Shown: positions 3,001 to 6,000 of the stretch, in pieces | Position numbering within the stretch: the first letter of the stretch is position 1 | How the letters are laid out: every line of letters begins with the position of its first letter | Origin: Candidatus Omnitrophota bacterium | Lineage (GTDB): Bacteria; Omnitrophota; Gorgyraeia; JAGLLT01 | Length of the DNA stretch: 10,656 bases | Reading direction: 5' to 3' | Assembly (NCBI GenBank): GCA_023140385.1 | Contig: JAGLLT010000009.1 | Location: 1 to 10,656, forward strand | Position numbers: made by a program

Positions 3001-6000
3001 TGTCAAGGCGGTGCAGGTTGGCGGGGCCTCGGGAATTTGTGTGCCCAAAAGCCAGTTTAGCCGTACAATCGCTTATGAAGATTTATCTACAGGCGGTTCC
3101 ATTATTATTTTCGGCCAAAAAAGGAATTTACTTGATGCTGTTGAAAACTTCCTCGAGTTTTTTGAAGAAGAGTCCTGCGGGCAGTGTACGCCGTGCAGGG
3201 AAGGAATTCCGGTATTAATTGAAGCCGTCAAAATGTTAAAAAAGGGAGAGTGCGGCAAGGAATACTTAAAAGACATCCTTTCTTTGTGCGAGACGATGCA
3301 GCTAGCTTCGAAGTGCGGCCTGGGACAGTCTTGCCCCAACACCCTTATTTCTATAATAAATAATTTTAAGCGAGAGTATACTTTATCAAAGGACAGTAAA
3401 CAGGAGAAAGCATTCAATGGATAACAAAAAACCGTTCGCGGAGGATACATCGAGAGCTCCCGTAAGCCAGAGAACCCAGCCGGTTGGCGAGGCGGACAAG
3501 AAGGCTTTGGGCGCGACAGTAAAGGCTGTAATTGACGATGTAGAGATTACGGTGCCGTTGGGCACGACTATTTTAGACGCGGCTAAAGAGGTCAATATAA
3601 AAATTCCTACGCTTTGTCATCATGATGACCTTTGCCTGGCAGGCGTCTGCCGTATGTGCGTGGTTGAAGTAGAAGGTGAGCGAACCCTTCAGGCGGCCTG
3701 TTCGTATCCTATATTTCGCCCCATTAAGGTAAAGACCTACTCTCCGGCGGTAAGGCGGGCAAGGAGAAACATTATTCAGCTTAGCTTAAGAAGGCATTAT
3801 GGAGAGTGTTACTCCTGTGCCAGAAACAACAACTGCGAACTGCAGACGCTGGCCAAGGAGTATGGAGTGACGACATATAAATTCGGCCACGTTAGTGAGC
3901 CGCAGTATAAAAAAGATTTCTCGAGTTATTCTCTTGAACGCGATATGAACAAATGTGTTTTGTGCCGCCGCTGTGTCAGAACCTGCATTGACTTGCAGGA
4001 AGTTGGCGTGCTGGAAGCGGCTTACAGGGGATCCGAGACTAAGATTGTAACTTATCTGGACAAGCCGCTTACGGATGTAGTCTGCATCAACTGCGGCCAG
4101 TGTATTAACAGATGCCCGACGGGCGCCTTAAAGGCAAAAGATCCCTCGCAGGTAGTTTGGGACGCGATAGAAGATCCCGCCAAACACGTTATTATCCAAA
4201 CGGCTCCCAGCCCGCGCGCCGCTATCGGGGAGGAGTTTGGGCTGCCGGCAGGCACAAGTGTTACCAAAAAAATGAACACCGCTCTTAAAAGAGTAGGTTT
4301 TGATAAGATTTTTGATACCAACTTTACGGCTGACCTTACCATTATGGAAGAGGGTACTGAGCTGCTTTTGAGGCTGAAAAAGGCATTGGTAGATGGGGAT
4401 AAAAATGTTAAGCTTCCTCAGTTTACCTCGTGTTCTCCCGGTTGGGTGAAGTATATAGAACACTTTTATCCGGAGAAGCTCGGGCATGTATCAAGCTGTA
4501 AGTCTCCACAGCAGATGTTCGGGGCTATTGTCAAGACATGGTATGCCGAGCGTAACAACATTGATCCGAAGAACATTGTCAGCGTTTCACTTATGCCCTG
4601 TTCGGCAAAAAAGTTTGAGTGCGAGCGTCCGGAAATGAACGACTCCGGCTTCAAGGATGTAGACTATGCCCTAACCACGCGTGAGCTGGCGGGGATGATT
4701 AAGGAGTGTGGTATTGATTTGCCGAACCTTCCTGACTCAGACTTTGACGACCCGCTTGGCATCGGTTCAGGCGCGGCTTTGATTTTTGGGGCAACCGGCG
4801 GCGTGATGGAGGCGGCCCTGAGAACAGCCTACGAGATAGTTACCGGCGAAGAGGTTCCTTTCAAGAAACTACGCATAACTCCGGTGCGAGGCATGGAGGG
4901 CATTAGAACCGCCGAAATTCCGATTAAGAAAGCTGTTAAGGATTGGAAATTTTTAGAGAGCGCGACACTTAAGGTGATGATCGGCCATGGTACGGCAAAT
5001 GCCAAGAAAATAATGGACATGCTTTGTGAAGGCAAGCTTGACGATTATCACTTTATTGAGATTATGGCCTGTCCCGGCGGATGCCTGGGCGGCGGCGGAC
5101 AGCCGATTCCGACCAGCCCCGCGATAAGGGAAGCCAGGGCCAGGGCGATTTACGCCGAGGACGAAGGCCTGCCGTATAGAAAGTCACACGAAAATCCCAT
5201 TGTCACGCAGATTTATAAGGAGTTTTTGACCGATGGGCCGTGCGGGCATAAAAGCCATAAGTTACTGCACACTTCTTATACCGCGCGCGGCAAGTGGATA
5301 GGGAAGAAGAAGTAAAAAGTAACGGGCGTTAAAAGCCTTTTAATAATCCTGCGATAAGGACTTAGGGTCTAAGTTCAAGGGAAACAAACGGGAATGTTAA
5401 ACCCAGTCTTATCGCGGAAAAATGGATAAGGCTGGGTTTTTTAGTAATGTTATAAGTTATATTCATTGTAAAAATCCTAAATACTAAGCACTAAATACTA
5501 AACAAATCCAAATGTCCAAAATGCAAATGACCAAAACAAAGACACTTAAGATTTATAACATTTGAGCATTAGAATTTTGAAATTATTTAGGATTTAGATA
5601 TTAGGATTTAGAGTTTGTTTAGAGCTTTTTAAATGTATAAAGGGTAAATAATTTTGACAATACGTTTGTTTCACGGGGAGGTAAATATATGGATAAGCGA
5701 TTGGGATTTATAGGGGTGATTTTAGAGAATAGAAAAGAAAAGGCGCCTTTGGTAAATGAAGTGCTTACATCATACGGAGACATTATTATTGCCAGGACAG
5801 GTTTGCCTTATAAAGAAAAGCACTGCAGTGTAATTACTCTTATAGTAGACGCTACTACGGATGAGCTTGGGGCTCTAACCGGTAAACTGGGCAAGATTGA
5901 GGGAGTATCGGTTAAATCCGCTCTAAGCAAAGGTAAATAAAATGGAGTATCGTATAGAAACTGATTTACTTGGTGAAATGGAGATTCCCGCGGATGCTTA

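Follow-up and report, generated by a model that had tools for sequence, protein, structure and literature searches.

The element at positions 5444 to 5663 of the window, by which is meant the whole 10,656-nucleotide stretch of Candidatus Omnitrophota DNA analysed, belongs to a non-autonomous mobile element that is present in 19 copies, and its core is, as judged by alignment, an ORF-less derivative of the intervening sequence (IVS) / S23p element family residing in operon spacers. How does a relative of sequences characterised in 23S rRNA come to lie between the genes of operons, and why in a single orientation there?

The repeat family and its copy in the window

A BLAST search of the 1.5-Mb genome (G000) with window positions 5440-5690, followed by iterations of nhmmer, led to 24 non-overlapping matches at E<=0.01, with 19 of them scoring above 80 bits. 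One ORF-bearing relative accounts for two of the five weaker ones, its arms being C18:1640-1716 and C18:2085-2157. The genome-wide survey's note had proposed at least 21 copies; the family itself is real, but it comprises 19 solid copies together with five fragments. The coordinates given there for the window copy, 5449-5683, begin 5 nt inside the element and at the other end overrun by 20 nt into the native spacer and its ribosome-binding site; the copy is 220 nt long. Family members are of 190-320 nt and non-coding, shortness and copy number being as expected of a MITE, and, as the survey had also said, Rfam has nothing here, the whole window giving no match even at E<=1. Median pairwise identity among the 11 best copies is 92.5%, which points to recent amplification. 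Of the related genomes, G023 and G007 are rich in copies, with 44 and 46 matches. A separate 20-nt GC-rich palindrome is nested in three copies and looks more REP-like. The parts of the window copy and its immediate surroundings are:

5400-5441, just upstream of the window copy: terminator-like hairpin
5436..5443, + strand: left putative target-site duplication GTTTTTTA, a T-rich stretch, this pair being degenerate
5444..5460, + strand: left terminal inverted repeat (TIR), a 17-mer and a degenerate form of GTAATGTCAAAAGTTGT
5461..5469, + strand: remnant of the 'head' module, shortened here and about 65 nt in full-length copies (19-copy alignment)
5470..5541, + strand: IVS-type core, its left arm built of 7-nt units, xxCTAAA then xCAAAAx (alignment to ORF-bearing elements)
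5512, within the left arm: second ATG, opening a 17-codon relic ORF
5527, within the left arm, + strand: ATG, relic start codon followed by the first codons of the lost S23p gene
5542..5563, + strand: centre (loop), the junction where some 330 nt coding for S23p were lost (single internal gap)
5564..5625, + strand: right arm of the core, 7-nt units TTTAGxx, mirror of the left arm
5626..5646, + strand: 'tail' module, lineage-specific and kept in 15 of the 19 copies
5647..5663, + strand: right TIR, its reverse complement being GTATTGTCAAAATTATT
5664..5673, + strand: right putative target-site duplication GTTTGTTTCA
5675..5699, + strand: native ribosome-binding site GGGGAGG (5675-5681) and start of the downstream gene, outside the element and conserved in the empty-site genome G002
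5689, + strand: ATG, start of a gene for a TM1266-like hydrogenase-system regulator, outside the element

The core, of about 150 nt, consists of inverted arrays of the 7-nt units. A full head is visible, in the 19-copy alignment, at C14:57968, C23:3481 and C33:69790. The tail is absent from the cross-phylum copies considered below, nearly all of whose matches stop near HMM position 155.

Ends, target duplications and empty sites

The TIRs are of 17 nt, the left being GTAATGTCAAAAGTTGT and the right its imperfect complement, with 13 of 17 positions shared. Exact or with one or two changes, the left 17-mer opens the long copies at C10, C14, C29 and C33, and it also opens the element that genome G003 has at the window's own junction. 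It is recognisable in nine of the 19 solid copies plus the relative at C10 (10 of the 20 loci examined), and the right TIR in 15 of the 19; that relative, of 322 nt (C10:23549-23870), has the only other close TIR pair in G000. The exact TIR is present in only three of eight genomes of the order. The target duplication is of 9-10 bp, perfect (10 of 10, AAGAAAATAG) at the C16 copy between gcvT and gcvH and alike at 7 of 9 positions for the copy in rnfC|rnfD (C33:69790), most others being degenerate. In G002 the empty site has a single T-rich stretch; in G000 and G003 the element is flanked on either side by stretches like it.

That relatives are without the element at the same junctions, an earlier claim, could be confirmed at four of them. 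The rnfC|rnfD spacer is 10 nt in same-genus G001 versus 266 nt in G000, and that between gcvT and gcvH is 15 nt in G004 versus 299 nt in G000; the window's own junction is 3 nt in G002 versus window positions 5442-5675 in G000, and the junction between a Na/Ca exchanger and a HIT gene is empty in G001. At rnfC|rnfD, G001 has overlapping stop and start codons (ATGA), as expected of the ancestral state, and its genes are 89-95% identical to those of G000, the element being missing at both of the comparable junctions. A dnaK|dnaJ spacer of '12 bp in G006' was not reproduced, the insert being in five of five relatives examined (genome handles may differ).

The 17-nt TIRs, the 9-10-bp duplications and the empty sites together indicate that the element inserted as a TIR-bounded unit, and with the recent amplification they uphold the survey's description of it as mobile, non-autonomous and MITE-like. 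What, then, moved it? From the duplications alone, a transposase-type mechanism may be surmised. A search of G000 for an autonomous partner sharing these TIRs found none, as close TIR matches there enclose short non-coding stretches and nothing else, and genes of the transposase families searched (rve, DDE_Tnp_1 and DDE_Tnp_IS1) were not found in the assembly, which is 92.7% complete.

Kinship with the intervening sequences of 23S rRNA

A 22-nt pattern of the right arm is matched at more than 123 loci in many phyla, and at 117 of 122 of the pattern loci the core model was matched by nhmmer, at most of them across the whole core. Two core copies are in hairpin loops inside one 23S rRNA gene, that of a Paceibacterota (CPR) MAG, at Rfam LSU model positions 583/584 and 1218/1219, which probably correspond to helices 25 and 45. 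At three loci, namely C18:1667-2029 of G000, L078 and L088, a gene for a protein of about 120 aa with a PF05635 match (50-59 bits, cut-off 33.8) lies between the same arms. PF05635 is the family of S23p, the protein of intervening sequences in 23S rRNA, an Avd-like four-helix bundle. When the ORF-bearing and ORF-less forms are aligned they differ by one internal gap with the ATG region kept, and the left arm of the window copy can be matched position by position to the corresponding arm and ATG of all three of those elements. Could repetitive arms be alike simply because their composition is of low complexity? The stretches shared outside the repeats argue against that being the sole cause. 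The PF05635 gene itself is absent from the window copy and from the other 18 solid copies, with only the ATG region remaining.

The organisation is also that of an IVS. Complementary arms able to form a stem are bounded by the outer 17-nt TIRs, tandem heptamers lie between the 5′ end and the relic S23p ATG, and the order of parts is TIR, head with AAAGGAG, heptamers, ATG. A characterised 23S IVS has, in the account of it in PMC4990558, terminal inverted repeats, a Shine-Dalgarno-like stretch and tandem heptamers before the S23p ATG, the same order as here. Inverted arms, a promoterless gene or its remnant and heptamers ahead of the ATG are features shared with the S23p-type IVSs that PMC4990558 describes from Salmonella, Leptospira and Coxiella and PMC11270868 from CPR bacteria, and the homology is direct at the sequence level, as the same core is in the two 23S hairpin loops. 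Shared too are the occurrence side by side of gene-bearing and gene-less forms, the latter being known in rRNA from what PMC11270868 and PMC2672173 report, and a patchy spread across phyla. What sets the present family apart is its location in the spacers of protein genes rather than in rRNA, its 19 copies per genome, the 17-nt TIRs, the 9-10-bp duplications and the failure to find an RNase III gene. None of the 19 copies is in a 23S hairpin loop; all are between protein-coding genes, at junctions of many unrelated kinds, and there is no 23S rRNA gene in the G000 assembly. The small IVSs of PMC2672173 are, as far as that account goes, reported without copies outside rRNA genes.

Elements with PF05635 are in 44 of the 61 genomes of the class. 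All three ORF-bearing copies have their ORF on the HMM-sense strand, and, where calls exist for both neighbours of a PF05635 locus in the class, 21 of 22 loci are co-directional with both.

Orientation within operons

The sense orientation reported earlier held up on re-examination, with the downstream gene on the element's strand in 19 of 19 cases and the upstream gene in 18 of 18 (the copy at C43:2-172 begins its contig). An apparent exception at C14:57968-58166 involves a shadow ORF, the real downstream genes being on the element's strand. The junctions that had been named (rnfC|rnfD, rnfE|rnfA with its two Rnf-Nqr subunits, gcvT|gcvH, dnaK|dnaJ, hisD|hisB and others) were borne out by a Pfam scan of 34 flanking proteins. 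The 3′ end of the element is mostly 16-27 nt ahead of the downstream start. On the upstream side the heptamers place stop codons in all three frames, and the dnaK stop codon is within the first heptamers of the insert in five of five genomes. Co-transcription with the neighbours is assumed, with the proviso that the window junction may not always be read through, given the hairpin at 5400-5441. A consensus scan of 5250-5750 found two promoter-like sites versus 1.8 expected and zero terminator-like ones. An outward promoter in the tail was entertained and rejected, since the conserved TTGACA upstream of the native ribosome-binding site has no -10 box to go with it.

Nineteen of 19 is far from random (0.5^19), but is it transcription that is being respected? 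The lock is real, but it is inseparable here from replication direction because 1225 of the 1360 pairs of adjacent ORFs in G000 are co-directional. Most contigs have 75-100% of their coding bases on one strand, with a GC skew of 0.13-0.22, and all 19 copies are on the majority strand of their own contig, with none in a minority-strand block. Perhaps, then, the orientation is a by-product of insertion tied to the direction of the replication fork, and meaningless at the level of RNA. Were the leading strand to carry about 95% of genes, a count of 19 of 19 would be expected with a p of about 0.4, and a bias towards one replication direction is a property of some insertion systems, IS200/IS605, the TnsE pathway of Tn7 and IS903 among them. 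Strand bias is weaker in other phyla, and there 20 of the 26 confidently called co-directional copies are sense and six antisense, approximately what replication-tied insertion would give; when all co-directional cases are taken it is 24 versus 14. This is not what an absolute rule tied to transcription predicts, with the qualification that orientation calls on a near-palindrome are error-prone. However, IS200/IS605, the best-known fork-coupled family, is not known to make a target duplication or to have TIRs, whereas the element has both, the transposases that do make duplications show, as far as is known, a bias that is partial and not 19 of 19, and the ORF-bearing relatives need the sense orientation independently, as their gene is without a promoter of its own. 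Insertion tied to the fork we consider an unlikely source of the lock, though one to be taken seriously.

RNA structure and RNase III

The genome-wide survey's note had ascribed survival in the sense orientation to a function of the hairpin in RNA, in which the transcribed stem would be a site of cutting or a barrier that divides polycistronic mRNA and separates the stability or translation of its cistrons. The idea has a rationale because of the homology to 23S IVSs, which are processed at the RNA level, being excised, on the description in PMC4990558, by RNase III cutting the stem formed by their inverted ends. Repeats in operons such as ERIC, Correia and BIME affect mRNA in an orientation-dependent manner according to PMC3049150. 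Across the wider PF05635 family the heptamers vary between elements while the arms stay reverse complements of one another, so that complementarity is maintained.

Yet every test that could be run (antisense fold, covariation, RNase III) had an adverse or neutral outcome. Of the hairpin energies cited earlier, a value near -37 kcal/mol is unremarkable, a 251-nt stretch having z = -0.33 against dinucleotide shuffles; what does stand is that most G000 copies have a core more stably folded than its shuffles (z -0.5 to -5.7). Of the two strands, it is the antisense RNA that is the more stable in 17 of the 19, by a mean of 7.4 kcal/mol. A weaker sense fold was tried as a general principle and rejected, as in 37 copies from other phyla it is weaker in 19 and stronger in 18, and the G000 result may reflect a single master copy whose trait has been counted 19 times over. 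RNAalifold placed zero pairs in its consensus structure for 36 copies from many phyla. In the CTAAA family, 76.0% of cells are paired in the symmetric scheme versus 77.7% in shuffles, with 500 of 500 shuffles equal to or above the observed value, figures to be read with the caveat that MAFFT may misplace repeated units and so mask covariation; when the register is displaced by 7 nt, pairing is about as good as in the symmetric one. RNase III (PF14622, PF00636) was found neither in G000 nor in any of the eight genomes of the order, and in the class it was found in 15 of 61, a distribution consistent by family. Moreover, a palindrome forms its stem in either orientation, so the stem alone leaves the sense lock unexplained, the junctions occupied are unrelated in kind, and G001 manages without the element at rnfC|rnfD. 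A division of mRNA by the hairpin is on this showing decidedly improbable.

Heptamers and S23p-like proteins

Do the heptamers serve a protein instead? Four PF05635 genes are in G000, one with the same arms, and two of their products also score against Pfam's bAvd model, at 27 and 40 bits for a cut-off of 40. One could envisage the heptamers as binding sites, in DNA or RNA, of the pentameric S23p/Avd-like protein or of some other, with this protein instead of a classical transposase underlying maintenance or mobility and the gene-less copies being served in trans by those four genes. In the CTAAA family five of the seven positions are nearly invariant and the two variable ones are without covariation between arms, as might be expected of spaced protein sites and not of a stem. 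The presence of the four genes is to be set beside the failure to find rve, DDE_Tnp_1, DDE_Tnp_IS1 or RVT_1 in G000. Arms of CTAAA type go with one protein subfamily at three loci in three genomes, two of them MAGs of other lineages; co-inheritance would account for the three cases equally well. In the descriptions available from PMC4990558 and PMC10053308, S23p forms a homopentameric ring built from four-helix bundles, and Avd is an essential partner that handles nucleic acid in retroelements. A tie between particular heptamers and the protein is weakened, though, by proteins at least 45% identical being flanked by differing heptamers (GGTAAG, TAGCG, CTAGT, CTCGT and others), a variety that speaks against sequence-specific recognition unless specificity changes fast. 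Such a role for the heptamers would come as a real surprise.

With the Avd proteins of diversity-generating retroelements the parent element's protein has its fold family in common, and PF05635 serves as a marker for Avd in PMC10053308, as far as its text describes. The resemblance goes little further, since no RVT_1 reverse transcriptase was found in G000, there are no template or variable repeats, and the protein is alone between heptamer arms.

Other palindromic repeats of bacterial operons

REP sequences and REPINs with their RAYTs are, as here, short palindromic intergenic repeats of many copies. REPINs are pairs of REPs of about 20 nt, are served by a Y1 transposase and are not known to make a target duplication. 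The kinship with REPINs that the survey had raised is disfavoured, as the element has the 17-nt TIRs and 9-10-bp duplications that REP/RAYT types are not known to have. Closer in form are the MITEs of operons, and Chunjie of Geobacter is an operon-borne MITE of the same sort. ERIC, Correia/NEMIS, BIME and BOX/RUP/SPRITE are, in the treatment of PMC3049150, also small, palindromic, non-coding and multi-copy with TIRs and duplications; they are described there as lying in transcribed spacers, co-transcribed with their neighbours, some with orientation-dependent effects on mRNA. The present family differs in that the parent is of IVS type with an Avd-like gene and not an insertion sequence, no known transposase family being linked to it, and in its arms of heptamer arrays, its sense orientation in 19 of 19 and its core shared across phyla.

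A probable account: a tolerated element with inherited polarity

The explanation that we favour, and hold to be probable without being assured of it, is that this is an ORF-less mobile element derived from IVS / S23p elements which is tolerated by the host and has kept an inherited sense polarity, its hairpin having no function for the host. IVS / S23p elements are small selfish elements, familiar from the hairpin loops of 23S rRNA genes, in which two inverted heptamer arms enclose a promoterless gene of about 120 aa. The gene-less core, within a TIR-bounded unit, has entered the short spacers of operons with duplication of 9-10 bp of the target. It would be tolerated for the little harm done, with stops in three frames upstream, an intact ribosome-binding site downstream and a weaker stem on the sense strand. 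The exclusively sense orientation would be the polarity of the family, inherited from a parent whose gene needs read-through from a host operon; selection removing antisense insertions would let that orientation persist in the gene-less copies, with no call for a host function of the hairpin.

A bolder extension, which is conceivable but which we would not at present back, takes IVS / S23p elements to be a pan-bacterial class of transposable element of transcribed but untranslated spacers, the loops of rRNA and the gaps of operons alike, without a recognisable transposase and making 9-10-bp duplications. The S23p pentamer would then perhaps be its own mobility factor, the sense lock would stem from dependence on host read-through, and lineages without RNase III may be especially permissive, with their stems left uncut.

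Significance

Since about 1990 the nature and spread of 23S IVSs, and with them what S23p does, have stood as open questions. That an IVS is the 'remnant of a transposition event', or a mobile element whose ORF serves mobility, still has the status of an untested hypothesis in PMC4990558, to the extent that it deals with the matter. What is new is the identity of the repeat as an IVS-type element outside rRNA, in the spacers of mRNA. A description of IVS-type elements as dispersed repeats of operon spacers was not found in the literature searched, most subscription journals being outside its scope, and four strings of 12-13 nt from the arms had literature matches that were all unrelated.

For annotation it matters that host genes such as dnaK take their stop codon, and in some cases their final residues, from these elements, which in uncultured phyla with small genomes also fragment assemblies and enlarge the 'intergenic' space. 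The patchiness of RNase III in the class (15 of 61 genomes) beside the wide occurrence of PF05635 elements (44 of 61) is a lead. Above all, G000 offers a recently amplified IVS family outside rRNA with clear ends, target duplications, empty sites in a sister genome and gene-bearing relatives in the same cell, and through it mobility, the choice of target and the role of S23p become directly testable.

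The element and its copies

Alignment of 19 copies, together with motif scans, gives the following layout for the repeat and its surroundings (window coordinates, forward strand).

3417-5315: [FeFe]-hydrogenase large subunit gene, upstream of the element
5444-5460: left end, 17 nt, GTAATGTCAAAAGTTGT, degenerate in this copy
5461-5469: head, about 65 nt including AAAGGAG, reduced to these positions in this copy
5470-5625: palindromic core, about 150 nt
5626-5646: tail
5647-5663: right end, an imperfect inverted copy of the left end
5689-5940: TM1266-like regulator gene, downstream of the element

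After the TM1266-like gene come a Lyase_1 gene, a HydF gene and two radical-SAM genes, which by their place would be hydG/hydE-like. The core is more than a plain hairpin, being two mirror arrays of 7-nt units, xxCTAAA and then xCAAAAx in the left arm and TTTAGxx in the right. Some copies have a nested 20-nt GC-rich palindrome, and one has a 41-nt palindromic insert. The 20-nt palindrome, CCTGCCTNNCGNNAGGCAGG, is nested in three element copies at two different positions; allowing up to 4 mismatches it has 12 matches in the genome (C14:14913, C16:17497, C7:52186 and 9 other places), it is also found within or adjoining core copies in MAGs of other phyla (loci L082 and L053 among them), and it looks like a separate, tiny REP-like insert favouring these AT-rich arms. 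A 322-nt relative at C10:23549-23870, in sense orientation and flanked by two co-directional genes, has exact terminal inverted repeats (TIRs), other inner arms (CAAGATA and GGATTAAG units), two small GC palindromes and a centre homologous to that of the core; the same type occupies the window's junction in the relative G003.

In the assembly (1,495,458 bases, 57 contigs, 41% G+C), BLAST of window 5440-5690 and three nhmmer rounds gave 24 non-overlapping matches at E<=0.01, 19 of them above 80 bits; the family described in the genome-wide survey's note is real, with 19 solid copies in place of its 21. All 19 are intergenic by a crude longest-ORF gene call, and the claim that they lie in sense relative to both flanking genes is borne out: the element's strand also carries the downstream gene in 19/19 cases and the upstream gene in 18/18, one copy opening its contig. 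The one apparent exception, C14:57968-58166, was a shadow ORF artefact: the genes really downstream, an 88-aa ORF and one whose sequence looks by eye like that of a ribulose-phosphate epimerase, are on the same strand as the element. Pfam matches of 34 flanking proteins confirmed the operon junctions rnfC/rnfD, rnfE/rnfA (two Rnf-Nqr subunits), gcvT/gcvH, dnaK/dnaJ and hisD/hisB, and others are aspartokinase/LeuA-like, nadA/pyridine-nucleotide oxidoreductase, M16 peptidase/Memo/RmuC and AdoHcy hydrolase/PFK, among further ones.

Between the hydrogenase gene and the window's element lies a conserved leader, 5330-5441, which is 78-81% identical in relatives G002 and G003, an unusual level for spacer DNA. 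A terminator-like hairpin closes it (5400-5413 pairing with 5425-5438, with a T run after), and the 5' half of that terminator could pair with a segment upstream (gcgataagga...), as in the layout of an attenuator or riboswitch. The leader had no Rfam match at E<=1, and a terminator scan did not flag its hairpin.

Relation to 23S rRNA intervening sequences

A 22-letter right-arm pattern was matched against bacteria and archaea, each species represented by one genome. Among the matches listed there are more than 123 stretches, several on contigs hundreds of kilobases long, with labels that include Patescibacteria, Omnitrophota, Planctomycetota (Sedimentisphaerales, Pirellulales), Nitrospirota, Deltaproteobacteria, Chloroflexota, Bacteroidales, Calditrichia and others, and one Methanophagales archaeon. 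The nhmmer model from the present genome matches 117/122 of the pattern loci listed, most of these matches spanning the whole core (model positions ~6-155) with up to 102 bits, and since non-repetitive stretches are common to the aligned copies, the likeness across phyla is homology and not mere composition.

What is the parent of such a core? In a Sedimentisphaerales scaffold (L078) and in locus L088 the two arms are ~320-400 nt apart, and between them is a 120-121-aa gene matching PF05635 at 50.5 and 55.7 bits (cut-off 33.8), the Pfam family named for the protein of intervening sequences in 23S rRNA. The present genome has four PF05635 matches, of which the one at C18:1667-2029 (59.4 bits) has the same arms on both sides, these being two of the weak nhmmer matches. 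Aligned to these three gene-bearing elements, the gene-less copies show one internal gap only and have retained the start-codon region caaATGac...aaaac (window 5512-5541). In a Paceibacterota MAG (L049) a complete 23S rRNA gene contains two core copies, one in each of two hairpin loops (Rfam LSU model positions 583/584 and 1218/1219), which from their place we infer to be the classical intervening sequence (IVS) sites, helices 25 and 45. A Saccharibacteria MAG (L051) has a 220-nt core copy, 2478-2697, ~100 nt upstream of its tmRNA gene, 2800-3161.

A characterised 23S IVS is, in the pertinent passages of PMC4990558, a selfish element with TIRs, a Shine-Dalgarno-like stretch and tandem heptamers of varying number 5' of the start codon of its protein, S23p; its stem is cut by RNase III, and S23p, whose function is unknown, assembles as a homopentamer of four-helix bundles. 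IVSs with an S23p ORF are noted also in rRNA genes of CPR bacteria (in a section of PMC11270868), and PF05635 is given as the family of the retroelement protein Avd (in a part of PMC10053308). The order TIR, AAAGGAG head, heptamers, ATG is the same in the element studied here, which is a gene-less IVS-type element.

Of 61 genomes sampled in the class, 44 have PF05635 genes (1-11 each), and in a control set of 14 well-known genomes only Bacteroides thetaiotaomicron has them. Of the 29 loci listed, 28 gave an ORF call; where both neighbours were called, 21/22 are co-directional with both, the gaps being mostly 2-110 nt. Most loci have flanking inverted repeats and raised 7-nt periodicity. The heptamers vary (GGTAAG, TAGCG, CTAGT, CTCGT, ACGTT, GTAAT, AGAAACC and others), even between proteins at least 45% identical, and yet upstream and downstream arms are reverse complements of each other, so that what the superfamily conserves is mirror symmetry of the arms and no particular word. 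At C9:2271-2714, among tRNA genes, there is a truncated PF05635 match; three tandem ~30-nt repeats (gccagactacgttaaaacttcggctggcagg-like) precede it, and the GC palindrome described above interrupts it.

Mobility and supplied stop codons

That the element is mobile and MITE-like, as had been proposed, stands on its TIRs, target duplications and empty sites. The reported absence from matching junctions of relatives holds at four. The rnfC/rnfD spacer is 10 nt in G001, of the same genus, which keeps an overlapping stop/start ATGA, versus 266 nt here, with flanks 92-94% identical; gcvT/gcvH has 15 nt in relative G004 versus 299 nt; the window's own junction has 3 nt in G002 versus 5442-5675 here, and in G003 it holds a diverged element that shares both ends; and G001 has an empty site at the C14:26990 junction. 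The copies are flanked by 9-10-bp direct repeats, perfect at gcvT/gcvH (AAGAAAATAG, including the gcvT stop codon), matching at 7/9 at rnfC/rnfD, and degenerate at others, the window's pair being GTTTTTTA / GTTTGTTTCA. The 11 best copies are 84.5-97.5% identical pairwise (median 92.5%) and G001 has weak matches only, and therefore the expansion postdates the split between the two species. The element is non-autonomous in the MITE sense. In the genome no pair of TIRs bounds a recognisable autonomous element, nor does the assembly have a gene matching rve, DDE_Tnp_1, DDE_Tnp_IS1 or RVT_1; the exact TIR is present in only 3/8 genomes of the order. At rnfE/rnfA of G001 (C7, locus L173) an unrelated 177-nt insert stands where the present genome has a headless copy, and it comprises a GC-rich hairpin and, as judged by eye, a good sigma-70-like promoter, TTACAT-17 nt-TATAAT.

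At dnaK/dnaJ, six genomes of the order (C7:52166-52353 here; L197, L198, L199, L200, L203) each have a different PF05635-type member: gene-less CTAAA type here and in G004, gene-bearing TAGCG type in G002 and G006, a decayed TAGCG remnant in G001, and GGATTAAG type in G003. Here and in G003, ~12 nt like a TAGCG-type right end stand just before the dnaJ start, which suggests that one element replaced, or nested within, another. The dnaK stop codon is within the insert's first heptamers in 5/5 genomes checked in frame, and in G001 and G004 the last 3 DnaK residues are insert-encoded; as 7 = 1 mod 3, successive TAA/TAG units stop every frame.

IVSs and MITEs are each already known, and in the relevant portion of one survey (PMC2672173) small IVSs are without copies outside rRNA genes. 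What appears new, as far as our searches reach (the subscription literature beyond them, including the original Leptospira and Salmonella work, may bear on the claim), is IVS-type elements as dispersed, recently active families in protein-coding operon spacers, with defined TIRs and target duplications, with one core common to many phyla, and supplying stop codons to host genes.

Is the hairpin at work in RNA?

The proposal that a transcribed hairpin acts at the RNA level fared poorly and is unlikely, the least supported explanation of the repeat. The folding energy cited for it is unremarkable: that of the 251-nt stretch does not beat shuffled sequences (z = -0.33); that of the core by itself does (z from -0.5 to -5.7). 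In 17/19 copies the antisense RNA folds more stably than the sense RNA, by a mean of 7.4 kcal/mol, which counts as about one observation because the copies are of common descent. Of 37 copies from other phyla that lie in co-directional junctions, 19 have the weaker fold in sense and 18 the stronger. An RNAalifold consensus of 36 copies from many phyla predicted no pair. In a symmetric 48-pair scheme 76.0% of cells pair versus 77.7% in shuffles, 500/500 of which equal or exceed the observed value, though misplacement of repeated units by the aligner could mask covariation; the pairing stems from invariant positions, and registers shifted by 7 nt pair about equally well.

RNase III was not found in the present genome (PF14622, PF00636) nor, by PF00636, in any of the order's 8 genomes, which at 83-100% completeness is no proof of absence, and a control search missed two bacteria that we believe to have the enzyme. 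PF00636 is present in 15/61 class genomes, with presence and absence consistent within families. The 46 genomes in which RNase III went unfound have 138 PF05635 genes, an average of 3.0 per genome, and the 15 in which it was found have 23, an average of 1.5; the tally ignores relatedness and is a lead only.

Orientation and its origin

The 19/19 orientation is far from random (0.5^19). However, strand bias of genes is extreme: 1225/1360 adjacent ORF pairs in the genome are co-directional (67 divergent, 68 convergent), on most contigs one strand holds 75-100% of the coding bases and GC skew is 0.13-0.22, and all copies are on the majority strand of their contig, so that gene sense and an orientation fixed by the replication fork are inseparable here. 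C14, which has 5 copies, has almost no GC skew (-0.007) and a strong AT skew (-0.12). The account that we prefer, at a little less than even odds, is that selection against the antisense orientation keeps the lock in gene-less copies: an antisense insertion would give a stronger stem, and ahead of the native ribosome-binding site it would place the complement of the head's AAAGGAG, the anti-Shine-Dalgarno-like CTCCTTT. An insertion bias tied to replication is a serious rival for the lock, and it fits the 20:6 orientation ratio among copies of other phyla.

The parent carries a gene that has no promoter and starts in the inner left arm, and this gives the family an intrinsic polarity; that gene would be expressed only when the host operon, or rRNA operon, reads through. 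The element is mobile, inserts in spacers with a 9-10-bp duplication, has recently expanded and is sense-oriented, and we infer that it rides along on operon transcripts and is no device of its host.
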